From the NCBI RefSeq assembly GCF_003334785.1, contig NZ_QOWV01000009.1: a DNA stretch of 64,000 nucleotides, one strand, 5' to 3'. Position 1 is the first letter of the stretch, and every line of letters starts with the position of its first letter. A program made the position numbers and the translations under genes. The notes under the pieces were generated by a model. The model was not told where the DNA came from, did not search any database, and worked only from the letters and a program-made list of their open reading frames with translations. This document shows, in pieces, positions 24,863-32,790 of the stretch. Origin of the DNA: Escherichia coli (GTDB lineage: Bacteria > Pseudomonadota > Gammaproteobacteria > Enterobacterales > Enterobacteriaceae).

Positions 24863-26065
24863 ATGCGCATCCTTCACACCTCAGACTGGCATCTCGGCCA
24901 GAACTTCTACAGTAAAAGCCGCGAAGCTGAACATCAGGCTTTTCTTGACTGGCTGCTGGAGACAGCACAAACCCATCAGGTGGATGCGATTATTGTTGCC
25001 GGTGATGTTTTCGATACCGGCTCGCCGCCCAGTTACGCCCGCACGTTATACAACCGTTTTGTTGTCAATTTACAGCAAACTGGCTGTCATCTGGTGGTAC
25101 TGGCAGGAAACCATGACTCGGTCGCCACGCTGAATGAATCGCGCGATATCATGGCGTTCCTCAATACTACCGTGGTCGCCAGCGCCGGACATGCGCCGCA
25201 AATCTTGCCTCGTCGCGACGGGACGCCAGGCGCAGTGCTGTGCCCCATTCCGTTTTTACGTCCGCGTGACATTATTACCAGCCAGGCGGGGCTTAACGGT
25301 ATTGAAAAACAGCAGCATTTACTGGCAGCGATTACCGATTATTACCAACAACACTATGCCGATGCCTGCAAACTGCGCGGCGATCAGCCTCTGCCCATCA
25401 TCGCCACGGGACATTTAACGACCGTGGGGGCCAGTAAAAGTGACGCCGTGCGTGACATTTATATTGGCACGCTGGACGCGTTTCCGGCACAAAACTTTCC
25501 ACCAGCCGACTACATCGCGCTCGGGCATATTCACCGCGCACAGATTATTGGCGGCATGGAACATGTTCGCTATTGCGGCTCCCCCATTCCACTGAGTTTT
25601 GATGAATGCGGTAAGAGTAAATATGTCCATCTGGTGACATTTTCAAACGGCAAATTAGAGAGCGTGGAAAACCTGAACGTACCGGTAACGCAACCCATGG
25701 CAGTGCTGAAAGGCGATCTGGCGTCGATTACCGCACAGCTGGAACAGTGGCGCGATGTATCGCAGGAGCCACCTGTCTGGCTGGATATCGAAATCACTAC
25801 TGATGAGTATCTGCATGATATTCAGCGCAAAATCCAGGCATTAACCGAATCATTGCCTGTCGAAGTATTGCTGGTACGTCGGAGTCGTGAACAGCGCGAG
25901 CGTGTGTTAGCCAGCCAACAGCGTGAAACCCTCAGCGAACTCAGCGTCGAAGAGGTGTTCAATCGCCGTCTGGCACTGGAAGAACTGGATGAATCGCAGC
26001 AGCAACGTCTGCAGCATCTTTTCACCACGACGTTGCATACCCTCGCCGGAGAACACGAAGCATGA
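24863..26065 (+). CDS. sbcD: Nuclease SbcCD subunit D
   Basis: ORF-track frame 24821-26065; start placed at [21 protein letters not shown]... (calcineurin-like phosphoesterase motifs DWHLG, GDVFD, GNHD); 400 aa; stop overlaps the sbcC start by 4 nt. Confidence 0.95.
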
Positions 26066-29000
26066 AAATTCTCAGCCTGCGCCTGAAAAACCTGAACTCA
26101 TTAAAAGGCGAATGGAAGATTGATTTCACCCGCGAGCCGTTCGCCAGCAACGGGCTGTTTGCTATTACCGGCCCAACAGGTGCGGGGAAAACCACCCTGC
26201 TGGACGCCATTTGTCTGGCGCTGTATCACGAAACTCCGCGTCTCTCTAACGTTTCACAATCGCAAAATGATCTCATGACCCGCGATACCGCCGAATGTCT
26301 GGCGGAGGTGGAGTTTGAAGTGAAAGGTGAAGCGTACCGTGCATTCTGGAGCCAGAATCGGGCGCGTAACCAACCCGACGGTAATTTGCAGGTGCCACGC
26401 GTAGAGCTGGCGCGCTGCGCCGACGGCAAAATTCTCGCCGACAAAGTGAAAGATAAGCTGGAACTGACAGCGACGTTAACCGGGCTGGATTACGGGCGCT
26501 TCACCCGTTCGATGCTGCTTTCGCAGGGGCAATTTGCTGCCTTCCTGAATGCCAAACCCAAAGAACGCGCGGAATTGCTCGAGGAGTTAACCGGCACTGA
26601 AATCTACGGGCAAATCTCGGCGATGGTTTTTGAGCAGCACAAATCGGCCCGCACAGAGCTGGAGAAGCTGCAAGCGCAGGCCAGCGGCGTCACGTTGCTC
26701 ACGCCGGAACAAGTGCAATCGCTGACAGCGAGTTTGCAGGTACTTACTGACGAAGAAAAACAGTTAATTACCGCGCAGCAGCAAGAACAACAATCGCTAA
26801 ACTGGTTAACGCGTCAGGACGAATTGCAGCAAGAAGCCAGCCGCCGTCAGCAGGCCTTGCAACAGGCGTTAGCCGAAGAAGAAAAAGCGCAACCTCAACT
26901 GGCGGCGCTTAGTCTGGCACAACCGGCACGAAATCTTCGTCCACACTGGGAACGCATCGCAGAACACAGCGCGGCGCTGGCGCATATTCGCCAGCAGATT
27001 GAAGAAGTAAATACTCGCTTACAGAGCACAATGGCGCTTCGCGCGAGCATTCGCCACCACGCGGCGAAGCAGTCAGCAGAATTACAGCAGCAGCAACAAA
27101 GCCTGAATACCTGGTTACAGGAACACGACCGCTTCCGTCAGTGGAACAACGAACCGGCGGGTTGGCGTGCGCAGTTCTCCCAACAAACCAGCGATCGCGA
27201 GCATCTGCGGCAATGGCAGCAACAGTTAACCCATGCTGAGCAAAAACTTAATGCGCTTGCGGCGATCACGTTGACGTTAACCGCCGATGAAGTTGCTACC
27301 GCCCTGGCGCAACATGCTGAGCAACGCCCACTGCGTCAGCACCTGGTCGCGCTGCATGGACAGATTGTTCCCCAACAAAAACGTCTGGCGCAGTTACAGG
27401 TCGCTATCCAGAATGTCACGCAAGAACAGACGCAACGTAACGCCGCACTTAACGAAATGCGCCAGCGTTATAAAGAAAAGACGCAGCAACTTGCCGATGT
27501 GAAAACCATTTGCGAGCAGGAAGCGCGCATCAAAACGCTGGAAGCTCAACGTGCACAGTTACAGGCGGGTCAGCCTTGCCCACTTTGTGGTTCCACCAGC
27601 CACCCGGCGGTCGAGGCGTATCAGGCGCTGGAGCCTGGCGTTAATCAGTCTCGATTACTGGCGCTGGAAAACGAAGTTAAAAAGCTCGGTGAAGAAGGTG
27701 CGACGCTACGTGGGCAACTGGACGCCATAACAAAGCAGCTTCAGCGTGATGAAAACGAAGCGCAAAGCCTCCGACAAGATGAGCAAGCACTTACTCAACA
27801 ATGGCAAGCCGTCACGGCCAGCCTCAATATCACCTTGCAGCCACTGGACGATATTCAACCGTGGCTGGATGCACAAGATGAGCACGAACGCCAGCTGCGG
27901 TTACTCAGCCAACGGCATGAATTACAAGGGCAGATTGCCGCGCATAATCAGCAAATTATCCAGTATCAACAGCAAATTGAACAACGCCAGCAACTACTTT
28001 TAACGACATTGACGGGTTATGCACTGACATTGCCACAGGAAGATGAAGAAGAGAGCTGGTTGGCGACACGTCAGCAAGAAGCGCAGAGCTGGCAGCAACG
28101 CCAGAACGAATTAACCGCGCTGCAAAACCGTATTCAGCAGCTGACGCCGATTCTGGAAACGTTGCCGCAAAGTGATGAACTCCCGCACTGCGAAGAAACT
28201 GTGGTATTGGAAAACTGGCGGCAGGTACATGAACAATGTCTCGCATTACACAGCCAGCAGCAGACGTTACAGCAACAGGATGTTCTGGCGGCGCAAAGTC
28301 TGCAAAAAGCCCAGGCGCAGTTTGACACCGCGCTACAGGCCAGCGTCTTTGACGATCAGCAGGCGTTCCTTGCGGCGCTAATGGATGAACAAACACTAAC
28401 GCAGCTGGAACAGCTCAAGCAGAATCTGGAAAACCAGCGCCGTCAGGCGCAAACTCTGGTCACTCAGACAGCAGAAACGCTGGCACAGCATCAACAACAC
28501 CGACCTGACGACGGGTTGGCTCTCACTGTGACGGTGGAGCAGATTCAGCAAGAGTTAGCGCAAACTCACCAAAAGTTGCGTGAAAACACCACGAGTCAAG
28601 GCGAGATTCGCCAGCAGCTGAAGCAGGATGCAGATAACCGTCAGCAACAACAAACCTTAATGCAGCAAATTGCTCAAATGACGCAGCAGGTTGAGGACTG
28701 GGGATATCTGAATTCGCTAATAGGTTCCAAAGAGGGCGATAAATTCCGCAAGTTTGCCCAGGGGCTGACGCTGGATAATTTAGTCCATCTCGCTAATCAG
28801 CAACTTACCCGGCTGCACGGGCGCTATCTGTTACAGCGCAAAGCCAGCGAGGCGCTGGAAGTCGAGGTTGTTGATACCTGGCAGGCAGATGCGGTACGCG
28901 ATACCCGTACCCTTTCCGGCGGCGAAAGTTTCCTCGTTAGTCTGGCGCTGGCGCTGGCGCTTTCGGATCTGGTCAGCCATAAAACACGTATTGACTCGCT

Positions 29001-29208
29001 GTTCCTTGATGAAGGTTTTGGCACGCTGGATAGCGAAACGCTGGATACCGCCCTTGATGCGCTGGATGCCCTGAACGCCAGTGGCAAAACCATCGGTGTG
29101 ATTAGCCACGTAGAAGCGATGAAAGAGCGTATTCCGGTGCAGATCAAAGTGAAAAAGATCAACGGCCTGGGCTACAGCAAACTGGAAAGTACGTTTGCAG
29201 TGAAATAA
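26062..29208 (+). CDS. sbcC: Nuclease SbcCD subunit C (SMC-like ATPase)
   Basis: 1048-aa ORF with N-terminal Walker A (GPTGAGKTT), long Q-rich coiled coil, central CxxC hook (PCPLCGS) and C-terminal signature/Walker B region ([17 protein letters not shown]...[11 protein letters not shown]). Confidence 0.96.
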
Positions 29209-29333: not shown

Positions 29334-30518
29334 ATGAAAAAAGTCATTTTATCTTTGGCTCTGGGCACGTTTGGTTTGGGGATGGCCGAATTTGGCATTA
29401 TGGGCGTGCTCACGGAGCTGGCGCATAACGTAGGAATTTCGATTCCTGCCGCCGGGCATATGATCTCGTATTATGCACTGGGGGTGGTGGTCGGTGCGCC
29501 AATCATCGCACTCTTTTCCAGCCGCTACTCACTCAAACATATCTTGTTGTTTCTGGTGGCGTTGTGCGTCATTGGCAACGCCATGTTCACGCTCTCTTCG
29601 TCTTACCTGATGCTCGCCATTGGTCGGCTGGTATCCGGCTTTCCGCATGGCGCATTTTTTGGCGTCGGAGCGATCGTGTTATCAAAAATTATCAAACCCG
29701 GAAAAGTCACCGCCGCCGTGGCGGGGATGGTTTCCGGGATGACAGTCGCCAATTTGCTGGGCATTCCGCTGGGAACGTATTTAAGTCAGGAATTTAGCTG
29801 GCGTTACACCTTTTTATTGATCGCTGTTTTTAATATTGCGGTGATGGCATCGGTCTATTTTTGGGTGCCAGATATTCGCGACGAGGCGAAAGGAAATCTG
29901 CGCGAACAATTTCACTTTTTGCGCAGCCCGGCCCCGTGGTTAATTTTCGCCGCCACGATGTTTGGCAACGCAGGTGTGTTTGCCTGGTTCAGCTACGTAA
30001 AGCCATACATGATGTTTATTTCCGGTTTTTCGGAAACGGCGATGACCTTTATTATGATGTTAGTTGGGCTAGGGATGGTGCTGGGAAATATGCTAAGTGG
30101 CAGGATTTCAGGACGTTATTCACCACTGCGCATTGCAGCAGTGACTGACTTTATAATTGTACTGGCACTGCTGATGCTCTTTTTCTGCGGCGGCATGAAA
30201 ACAACGTCGCTTATTTTTGCTTTTATTTGTTGCGCGGGATTATTTGCCCTTTCAGCACCGCTACAAATATTGTTACTACAAAACGCCAAAGGCGGAGAGT
30301 TATTAGGTGCCGCAGGTGGGCAAATAGCGTTTAACCTCGGTAGCGCCGTCGGCGCATATTGCGGAGGTATGATGCTGACGCTGGGACTGGCATATAATTA
30401 CGTGGCGCTGCCTGCCGCCCTGCTTTCGTTTGCTGCGATGTCGTCGTTGCTGCTGTATGGTCGCTATAAGCGCCAGCAAGCGGCGGATACTCCGGTGCTG
30501 GCGAAACCACTGGGGTAG
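29334..30518 (+). CDS. araJ: MFS transporter AraJ
   Basis: ORF-track frame 29250-30518; start placed at MKKVILSLALGTFGLGMAEFGIMGVL... (394 aa), 12-TM MFS protein. Confidence 0.9.
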   Translation: MKKVILSLALGTFGLGMAEFGIMGVLTELAHNVGISIPAAGHMISYYALGVVVGAPIIALFSSRYSLKHILLFLVALCVIGNAMFTLSSSYLMLAIGRLVSGFPHGAFFGVGAIVLSKIIKPGKVTAAVAGMVSGMTVANLLGIPLGTYLSQEFSWRYTFLLIAVFNIAVMASVYFWVPDIRDEAKGNLREQFHFLRSPAPWLIFAATMFGNAGVFAWFSYVKPYMMFISGFSETAMTFIMMLVGLGMVLGNMLSGRISGRYSPLRIAAVTDFIIVLALLMLFFCGGMKTTSLIFAFICCAGLFALSAPLQILLLQNAKGGELLGAAGGQIAFNLGSAVGAYCGGMMLTLGLAYNYVALPAALLSFAAMSSLLLYGRYKRQQAADTPVLAKPLG

Positions 30519-30546
30519 GTTATAGTCTCGGTGCTCATTACTTATT

Positions 30547-30768
30547 GCCGGATGCGGCGTGAACGCCTTATCCGCCCTACGCGGTTCTGGCACATTTTGC
30601 AGGCCTGATAAGACGCGGCAAGCGTCGCATCAGGCATCGGAGCACTTATTGCCGGATGCGGCGTGAACGCCTTATCCGGCCTACGGTTCTGGCACCTTTT
30701 GTAGGCCTGATAAGACGCGGCAAGCGTCGCATCAGGCCTGATAAGACGCGGCAAGCGTCGCATCAGGC
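30547..30768. repeat. BIME: tandem REP cluster between araJ and mak
   Basis: Repeated gccggatgcggcgtgaacgccttatccg(g/c)cctac and aggcctgataagacgcggcaagcgtcgcatcaggc units; an approximately 110-bp composite unit is duplicated in tandem with one extra REP copy. Confidence 0.85.
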
Positions 30769-30793
30769 ATGATGCGCCAATTGCCTACGTTTT

Positions 30794-31702
30794 TTACTCT
30801 TGTGGCCATAACCACGCAGCGCCGCGTACGCCGCTGGAATCACCGTGCTTCGCCTTACGCACCGGCGTTTCACATTCGCCGCCGAAGACAAATTGTTTAA
30901 TCAACTGCCCAACCGTTTGATATAAACGGTCTACATTGCTCATCCCGCCCCCCAGGACAATCACATCCGGATCGAGAATATTCACGACATGTGCCAGCGA
31001 TTTTGCCAGCCGCAGCTCGTAGCGACGCAATGCCAGTTCCGCTACCGGATCGCTTTCTTCAACCAGGCGGATAATTTCACTGCCTTTCAGCGCATGTCCG
31101 CTCAAACGACGATAATCCATCGCGAATCCCGTGCCCGAAATAAAGGTTTCAATACAACCTTGTTTACCGCAATAACAAGGGACTTCCTCGCGATAACGCA
31201 GTTCGTCTTCGTCCATCCACGGTAGCGGATTGTGTCCCCACTCACCTGCCGTGCCATTGCCGCCGATATGCGCCCGCCCATTGAATGCCACGCCCGCGCC
31301 GCATCCCGTGCCGATAATCACGGCAAATACCGTCTGCGCTCCCGCTGCCGCGCCATCTACTGCTTCTGAAACCGCCAGACAGTTAGCGTCATTTGCCAGC
31401 CGCACTTCCCGCTGCAACCTCGCGCTTAAGTCTTTATCGAATGGCTGACCGTTGAGCCAGGTTGAATTGGCATTCTTCACCACACCGGTGTAAGGCGAAA
31501 TTGAGCCAGGAATGCCCATACCTACCGTTCCGCGCTGCCCCGTCGCCTGCTCCGCCATATCAACCAACGTGGCGATCGTTTCAATAGTCTGCCGGTAATC
31601 ATCACGCGGCGTGGGCAGACGATGGCGGTACAACTGCTCCCCTGCATCGCCCAGTGCAATCACTTCAGTTTTGGTGCCGCCTAAATCGATACCTATACGC
31701 AC
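30794..31702 (-). CDS. mak: Fructokinase / manno(fructo)kinase, ROK family
   Basis: ORF-track frame 30794-31840; start placed at the GTG giving (M)[24 protein letters not shown]... (302 aa) with the ROK sugar-kinase glycine motif. Confidence 0.9.
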
Positions 31703-32757: not shown

Positions 32758-32790
32758 GCCGGATGCGACGCCTGCCGCGTCTTATCCGGC
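32758..32790. repeat. REP element downstream of rdgC
   Basis: gccggatgcgacgcctgccgcgtcttatccggc, a canonical REP palindrome beginning about 20 nt after the rdgC stop. Confidence 0.7.

Follow-up and report, generated by a model that had tools for sequence, protein, structure and literature searches.

The araJ-mak spacer of an Escherichia coli genome holds a BIME-2 element that differs from that of K-12 by a rare 31-bp REP duplication

The spacer between araJ and mak in this Escherichia coli genome is occupied by a BIME-2, an array of REP palindromes that is the same element as in K-12 MG1655 save for a 31-bp duplication. We studied it within a stretch of DNA of 64 kb, referred to below as the window. 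The kind of element is already known and is present in K-12, and the sole feature specific to the window is the rare duplication of 31 bp of a REP. Taken jointly, the account in which the element is a BIME-2, originates and varies through recombination or slippage, and has the 3'-UTR and gyrase functions that the literature describes for its class appears to us highly probable.

Anatomy and class of the repeat array

The element sits between two convergent genes. araJ, encoding an MFS transporter, occupies 29334-30518 on the + strand and ends in a TAG stop codon at 30516-30518; mak, encoding a fructokinase, occupies 30794-31702 on the - strand, with its TAA stop codon at 30794-30796. Both sets of coordinates were taken over from FDAARGOS_1248, in which the locus is identical and annotated by RefSeq, and the protein calls are those of the NCBIfam models NF007498 for AraJ upstream (765 bits) and NF007108 for Mak downstream (609 bits), with SbcC also called by NCBIfam (26062-29208, + strand). 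The spacer extends from 30519 to 30793, and the RefSeq coordinates agree with the 275 bp and the convergent arrangement that the first-pass annotation, made from the letters alone, had given. The REP element is fully contained between the two stop codons, and the RefSeq record of MG1655 lists no REP features in the araJ-mak interval.

Tandem periodicity, proposed in the first pass as the check on which the reading should stand or fall, was recovered at two scales. TRF detected an array of period 102 at 30540-30737 (1.9 copies, 94% matches, score 359) and a second array of period 31 at 30703-30773 (2.3 copies, 97% matches), and a repeat search returned two repeats, one of 54 nt at 96% and one of 42 nt at 98%, whose copies lie 102 and 104 nt apart, together with dense inverted repeats across the element. 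Combined with alignment, these results delimit two composite units: unit 1 of 104 bp (30540-30643), made up of a y REP, an 18-nt linker, a z2 REP and a 15-nt linker, and unit 2 of 102 bp (30644-30745), made up of a y REP, a 16-nt linker and a z2 REP. Over the ~97 nt that they share, the units differ by three substitutions and one 2-nt indel (96-97% identity), so that the earlier description of two near-identical composite units with a few differences and one extra REP is borne out by TRF, the repeat search and the unit alignment alike. The unit length of ~110 bp given with that description is to be corrected to 102-104 bp, because unit 1 and unit 2 align as 104 and 102 nt.

The bounds first assigned to the element, 30547-30768, coincide exactly with the start of the first and the end of the last of five REP palindromes. 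The first, y REP 1 (30547-30580, - strand), has one mismatch to the y pattern and carries CTAC on the + strand at 30577-30580; its foot has a G-to-C change (GCCCTAC), it reads as an iREP on the + strand and as a REP on the - strand, and its RNA hairpin is predicted at about -15 kcal/mol. z2 REP 1 (30599-30635, palindrome 30603-30635, + strand) matches the z2 pattern exactly, with the conserved 5' GTAG mutated to GCAG (30599-30602) and a hairpin of -20.4 kcal/mol. y REP 2 (30651-30684, - strand) matches the y pattern with 0 mismatches, has the canonical GGCCTAC with CTAC at 30681-30684, and forms a hairpin of about -20 kcal/mol, and it is followed by z2 REP 2 (30701-30737, palindrome 30705-30737, + strand), whose GTAG at 30701-30704 is intact. 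The fifth, z2 REP 3 (palindrome 30736-30768, + strand), also matches the z2 pattern; it lacks GTAG, being preceded by TCAG, and has 2 nt of its foot in common with z2 REP 2. Both y REPs read GCCGGATGCGGCGTGAACGCCTTATCCGGCCTAC on the + strand and all three z2 REPs read GCCTGATAAGACGCGGCAAGCGTCGCATCAGGC. The REP units measure 30-33 nt, or 34-37 nt with the tetranucleotide, and every stem contains a two-base mismatch bubble, GC/TT in y and AA/GC in z2. The first four REPs thus follow the order y(-), 18 nt, z2(+), 15 nt, y(-), 16 nt, z2(+), with orientation alternating throughout; z2 REP 3 has the orientation of z2 REP 2, and strict alternation, which the K-12 allele keeps throughout, is broken only by this 31-bp duplicate.

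None of 100 dinucleotide-preserving shuffles of the window produced a match to the y or the z2 REP pattern. As RNA, the individual REP hairpins are predicted at -14.5 to -20.5 kcal/mol on either strand, and the folding of the whole spacer compared with shuffles gave z = -7.1 and -6.7 for the two strands. Among 10 z2 variants from this locus and elsewhere, pairing of the stem is kept in 100% of cells, and two double changes are compensatory. Downstream of the last z2, the sequence GCATGATGCGCCAATTGCCTAC (30767-30788, - strand), which ends in CTAC, is the degenerate remnant of a REP; it was found through inverted repeats and a weak match to the Rfam naRNA4 model (30735-30807, - strand, 39 bits) and is kept in all alleles examined.

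In the published scheme, BIME-1 combines z1 and y REPs around a long L linker that often contains an IHF site, whereas BIME-2 combines z2 and y REPs with short linkers in multiple tandem copies, whose number at a given locus differs among strains (Ton-Hoang 2012, PMC3333891). The araJ-mak array is extragenic, its palindromes fit the y and z2 consensus, y and z2 alternate across short linkers in tandem units, and the element is present in K-12 and occurs across genomes as one- and two-unit alleles, a strain-variable copy number. The first-pass call of a BIME of REP palindromes between araJ and mak is therefore upheld under the published definition of BIME-2. It departs from the canonical form in two respects: its fifth REP is a z2 in the same orientation as the fourth and overlaps the foot of the latter, a z2-z2 pair that the canonical alternating layout does not include, and one of its z2 REPs has GCAG instead of GTAG. 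The REP pieces match all 5,426 of 5,426 E. coli genomes, at a median of at least 31 places per genome among the matches listed, and the window itself contains 4 y and 7 z2-like REPs. Further, IS1397 inserts specifically into E. coli REPs (PMC1525189), and in strain E118 a truncated IS1397-family element lies inside the loop of an araJ-mak z2 REP, which amounts to an independent recognition of the sequence as a REP.

The IHF site proposed in the first pass fared differently. Some BIMEs are associated with IHF, and the araJ-mak array shares with BIME-1 (RIP) a y REP and an extragenic position, but it lacks both a z1 REP and the long L linker (its linkers are 15-18 nt and its non-y REPs are z2), and the IHF consensus WATCAANNNNTTR has no match in 30519-30793, the nearest lying at 30910-30922, inside mak. 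It is the L linker of BIME-1 that carries IHF sites (PMC3333891), and araJ-mak is not a member of that class; that it should nevertheless be an IHF-binding BIME is hardly credible, and we withdraw the site.

The window contains a second BIME-2, between fghA and yaiL (61728-61914), with a y/z2/y/z2 layout and a 100-bp period. It has this layout and a one-unit/two-unit polymorphism in common with araJ-mak (in 12 of 29 sampled chromosomes the fghA-yaiL spacer has the two-unit length and in 16 it is ~100 bp shorter), but it has its own linkers and z2 loops and is without the extra same-orientation REP. That BIME-2 elements in general vary in copy number has already been published (PMC3333891).

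Copy-number alleles and the 31-bp duplication

Comparison of copy number at this locus across E. coli genomes, the other check suggested at the outset, revealed one-unit alleles, two-unit alleles and two-unit alleles with the additional z2. Among 59 chromosomes, sampled at even spacing along the ranked matches, the one-unit allele of 135-143 bp accounts for 33 (56%, including the IS1397-carrying strain and also a shorter variant), the K-12-like two-unit allele of 244 bp for 14 (24%), and a diverged two-unit allele of ~268 bp, carried for example by 536 and Nissle, for 11 (19%); the 275-bp allele of the window is the remaining one, which heads the ranking by construction. In WGS1363, y loop, z2 stem and linkers are not the same in the two units of the diverged allele, and an extra 33 nt lie between the units.

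The first-pass annotation took the few differences between the two units as a sign of recent tandem duplication. The 96-97% identity of the units would suit this reading, as would the one-unit alleles, which are the commonest in the sample and occur also in some cryptic Escherichia lineages. However, the same two-unit layout is found in K-12 MG1655 and in the quarter or so of the sample that shares its allele, on two flank haplotypes (MG1655 and WP2 have two units on the K-12-like flank, and ST540 has two units on the other flank, which is common to O157 and O111); the diverged two-unit allele adds a further group, and a decayed form of that diverged arrangement was found in E. whittamii, among the species representatives. 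It is also unit 2 that has the consensus GTAG and GGCC foot and unit 1 that is mutated, unlike what a fresh copy of unit 1 would look like. Finally, two one-unit strains share the K-12-like flank and have AraJ and Mak proteins identical to those of two-unit WP2: LH13-b (142 bp) retains unit 1 and M719 (140 bp) retains unit 2. One-unit alleles in two registers point, at the level of sequence, to independent contractions of a two-unit allele. A recent duplication of the composite unit of ~102 bp in the source genome is thus largely refuted, and we rate it as very improbable. Rather, from the comparison of alleles, units of ~102 bp would be gained and lost by unequal recombination or by replication slippage between the repeats.

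Related species extend this picture. Two cryptic-clade Escherichia have one unit; E. albertii, which lacks araJ, has a lone y-like REP; in C. koseri, a BIME of the Citrobacter type, with at least 3.5 units in tandem, adjoins mak, and other Citrobacter have a short hairpin only. From the alleles and the species representatives together, we conclude that REP clusters in this spacer predate the diversification of E. coli, and that their copy number is labile.

The sole recent event is the z2 duplication of 31 bp. The segment 30734-30764 (+ strand), which creates z2 REP 3 and underlies the TRF period of 31, is an exact direct duplicate of 30703-30733, and the MG1655 spacer, at 244 bp versus 275 bp, is otherwise equal to that of the window base for base, with one 31-bp copy fewer; from this identity, the window allele is the K-12 allele plus a direct duplication of 31 bp. 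It occurs in 3 of 5,426 complete E. coli genomes (FDAARGOS_1248, LR-64-2 and 200112), and a 42-mer and a 30-mer across the z2-z2 junction match only these three genomes, and there only the araJ-mak locus. Over 25 kb, several genomes that do not have the duplication show essentially no difference from the window, and for this reason we consider the duplication young. Short tandem palindromes are error-prone in some sequencing technologies, but the window and three complete assemblies, which come from the USA and from other places, share the junction base for base, and this makes an assembly or sequencing artefact extremely unlikely.

How the extra copy arose is suggested by its borders. The duplicated z2 segment is flanked by the imperfect direct repeats AGGCCTGAT and AGGCATGAT, and a 4-nt microhomology, AGGC, allows five equivalent placements of the boundary. 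The copy would have formed most simply through replication slippage or unequal exchange at the microhomology between AGGCCTGAT and AGGCATGAT, since this microhomology brackets it. The REP family overall is thought to have been spread in trans by a RAYT/TnpA-REP transposase. The araJ-mak y and z2 partners do resemble REPIN-RAYT systems in forming an imperfect inverted doublet, with 17-nt arms that are 88% complementary, and the doublet carries the GTAG/CTAC and the stem mismatch that TnpA-REP needs in vitro (PMC3333891). Unlike such systems, however, the 64-kb window is without a RAYT gene, and z2 REP 1 and z2 REP 3 would not be RAYT substrates because GTAG, a defining feature of REPs, is missing from them. 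TnpA-REP cleaves in vitro between C and T of a CT dinucleotide (Ton-Hoang 2012, PMC3333891), and 0 of the 5 boundary placements has its break at C^T; slippage is therefore the simpler origin, and a RAYT-mediated one the less likely. RAYT/TnpA-REP would likewise be unnecessary to explain the polymorphism at araJ-mak.

As to its consequences, the extra z2 copy is probably close to neutral in function: the hairpin that it adds within the array is an identical one, and the first structures that either transcript would meet stay as they were.

Predicted roles at the RNA and DNA levels

When transcribed from araJ or from mak, the REP hairpins would fall in both 3' UTRs. REPs have been described as partial, context-dependent and partly Rho-dependent terminators and as stabilisers of mRNA that act locally in the 3' UTR (Harris 2026 preprint). 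By analogy with the repeat class, the hairpins at araJ-mak may impede read-through in a leaky and partly Rho-dependent way and may block 3'-to-5' exonucleases, and this role as 3'-UTR barrier and stabiliser is, in our estimate, somewhat more likely than not to be the main effect of the element here. A bidirectional terminator, as proposed in the first pass, is plausible in this form of leaky 3'-end hairpins.

The stricter version, in which araJ and mak share the spacer as a canonical intrinsic (Rho-independent) terminator that works in both directions, we regard as unlikely. Stable GC-rich hairpins do lie between the convergent genes, overlap with a predicted bidirectional terminator has been reported for ~40% of REPs in such positions (Harris 2026 preprint), and Citrobacter relatives have a plain terminator-like hairpin in the corresponding place, which in C. 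amalonaticus is flanked by T and A runs. In addition, base pairing between the degenerate remnant at 30767-30788 and the last z2, in its 3' half, can give an alternative hairpin (30741-30793, -22.3 kcal/mol) that abuts and partly includes a T6 run of the + strand (30790-30795, overlapping the mak stop codon) and has A-rich sequence on its 5' side. Against this, a consensus scan of 30300-31000 returned 0 intrinsic-terminator-like sites on either strand, the REP hairpins have no adjacent U tracts, and what comes after the first hairpin on the mak strand is GCGUCUUAUC instead of a run of U. The hairpin at the T run would also compete with the last z2 hairpin, which is transcribed earlier. The alternative hairpin with T6 is a possible weak intrinsic terminator for araJ in the folding model, one that falls short of the scan's thresholds. 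The REP/bidirectional-terminator and TERMITe Term-seq supplementary tables yielded no usable 3' ends or half-lives for araJ-mak, and mobilome mapping of REP31/REP32 gave nothing usable for the element. araJ itself appears in the REP/bidirectional-terminator supplementary tables in a differential-expression row only.

At the DNA level, gyrase cleavage is significantly enriched in BIME-2 elements, mostly at y REPs and independently of transcription (Sutormin 2019, PMC6379681). Because of this enrichment, the gyrase site suggested in the first pass is plausible by analogy, and the y REPs of araJ-mak would be the likely sites of binding and cleavage, going by the literature on the class. The published supplementary tables that we searched gave no gyrase-cleavage entry for araJ or mak.

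A more far-reaching role is raised by similarity to REP325, a BIME-2 of six y/z2 units whose repeat unit is naRNA4 (Qian et al. 2015, PMC4550694). The head-to-head z2/linker/y pair at 30602-30681 (- strand) matches the Rfam naRNA4 model (RF02564) at 79.8 bits, above the gathering score of 59.5, and the two elements share the same type of unit (y, linker, z2). They differ in that REP325 has six units between yjdM and yjdN, inside an operon, whereas araJ-mak has two between convergent genes, and the araJ-mak head-to-head linker aligns only partly with the 'l' linker of REP325 in the Rfam alignment. Under one reading, then, araJ-mak would encode naRNA4-like RNAs that bridge REP cruciforms with HU and condense the chromosome, in keeping with the nucleoid role that Qian et al. 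2015 (PMC4550694) put forward for the REP325 units, which are homologous. The naRNA4 model, however, matches three places within the 64-kb window, araJ-mak included; since two further places match, it is in practice a generic detector of BIME-2 units, and because it describes a generic y/z2 pair its score says little about function. A consensus scan of the spacer found no promoter-like site on either strand. Moreover, a recent report, whose group counts among its members an author of the first REP325 work, finds that REP325 and naRNA4 cause no measurable compaction of the nucleoid and sees no REP-REP contacts, and reassigns REP325 to local 3'-UTR regulation (Harris 2026 preprint), which weakens the reading further. 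We consider such an RNA role at araJ-mak very unlikely, and retain the local 3'-UTR role as the preferred one.

Internal reading frames and significance of the locus

The element fully encloses three ORFs of 30 aa or more, at 30542-30763 (- strand), 30559-30666 (+ strand) and 30656-30772 (+ strand). The first-pass annotation had dismissed the ORFs here as spurious and counted two; the dismissal stands, on the grounds of allele-dependent length and sequence and of the lack of a PGAP call, and the count becomes three. The longest, of 73 aa (30542-30763), starts with ATG and is uninterrupted, which could be taken as a sign of a real small protein. Its peptide, however, consists of translated REPs (MRRLPRLIRPDATLAASYQA...), and its length and sequence shift with copy number and allele: the corresponding ORF has 73 aa in the window, 78 in MG1655, 44 in a one-unit allele and 58 in the two-unit allele of WGS1363. 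PGAP/RefSeq annotates none of the ORFs in the element, and we see next to no chance that any of them encodes a real small protein.

The value of these results lies almost wholly in annotation hygiene: the interval is best labelled as a BIME-2 REP cluster and its internal ORFs suppressed, and polymorphism in the length of the spacer is to be expected in strain comparison and in primer design. A more speculative point concerns the site of the duplication. In Escherichia sp. MOD1-EC7003, which has one unit, the z2 foot that corresponds to the site of the duplication in the window carries a microsatellite, (CATCAGG)x6. The 3' foot of the terminal z2 might on this basis be a recurrent hotspot of slippage, yielding a series of alleles that might tune the 3' ends or the stability of araJ and mak transcripts, an idea that we offer as improbable. 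If it were true, REP number could rise without a RAYT and outside the alternating BIME layout. With one-unit alleles in both registers, the 31-bp duplication and the IS1397 insertion, the locus provides a worked example of how a REP cluster expands and contracts, and its natural series of alleles could serve to test the effect of REP copy number on the expression of convergent genes.

Other REP elements of the window

The araJ-mak element is accompanied by a second BIME-2 at 61728-61914, between fghA (frmB) and yaiL, which has the layout y/z2/y/z2 with a period of 100 bp. The two elements differ in their linkers and share a length polymorphism between one-unit and two-unit alleles across E. 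coli genomes: among 29 sampled E. coli chromosomes, the fghA-yaiL BIME-2 had two units in 12 and one unit in 16. A third BIME (63887-64000), composed of y-like and z2 REPs, continues past the end of the window and matches naRNA4 (Rfam RF02564) at 62.8 bits.

Lone REPs were found at 4663-4695 on the plus strand and 32758-32790 on the minus strand. One of them, about 20 nt 3' of the rdgC stop codon, holds a z2-type interior inside y-type feet (GCCGGAT...ATCCGGC), a compensatory foot change. The other, a z2 variant, has 3 mismatches.

Insertion and possible slippage in the araJ-mak spacer

In E. coli E118 (NZ_CP049196), the araJ-mak spacer contains a truncated IS1397-family element of ~973 bp, annotated as incomplete; IS1397 is an insertion sequence known for targeting REPs (PMC1525189). 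The allele has one unit, and the IS splits its z2 REP within the central loop, with GACGCG on one side of the IS and GCAAGCGTC on the other. In Escherichia sp. MOD1-EC7003, the spacer adjoining the mak stop carries a (CATCAGG)x6 microsatellite where the z2 REP has its 3' foot, the same position as the 31-bp duplication of the window (30703-30733 copied as 30734-30764), and this coincidence suggests that the foot may be a local slippage hotspot.

The mak region across strains and species

Locus tags in MG1655 (410144-412481) pass from b0394 (mak) to b0396 (araJ) with no b0395 between them, a gap in numbering that suggests a former ORF b0395, since withdrawn, in the REP-filled spacer. The mak gene itself is annotated as a pseudogene in O157:H7 FRIK944 (frameshift) and in GPEC1258 (internal stop).

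Escherichia albertii NBRC 107761 is without araJ; sbcC and mak are directly convergent there, and their interval holds one y-like REP, GCCAGATGCGGCATGAGCGCCTTATCTGGC. In Citrobacter koseri NCTC10786, at least 3.5 tandem units of a Citrobacter-type BIME, with a period of ~100 bp, adjoin the mak stop at the equivalent position. Colonisation of this spacer by REP clusters has therefore also occurred, independently, in another genus.
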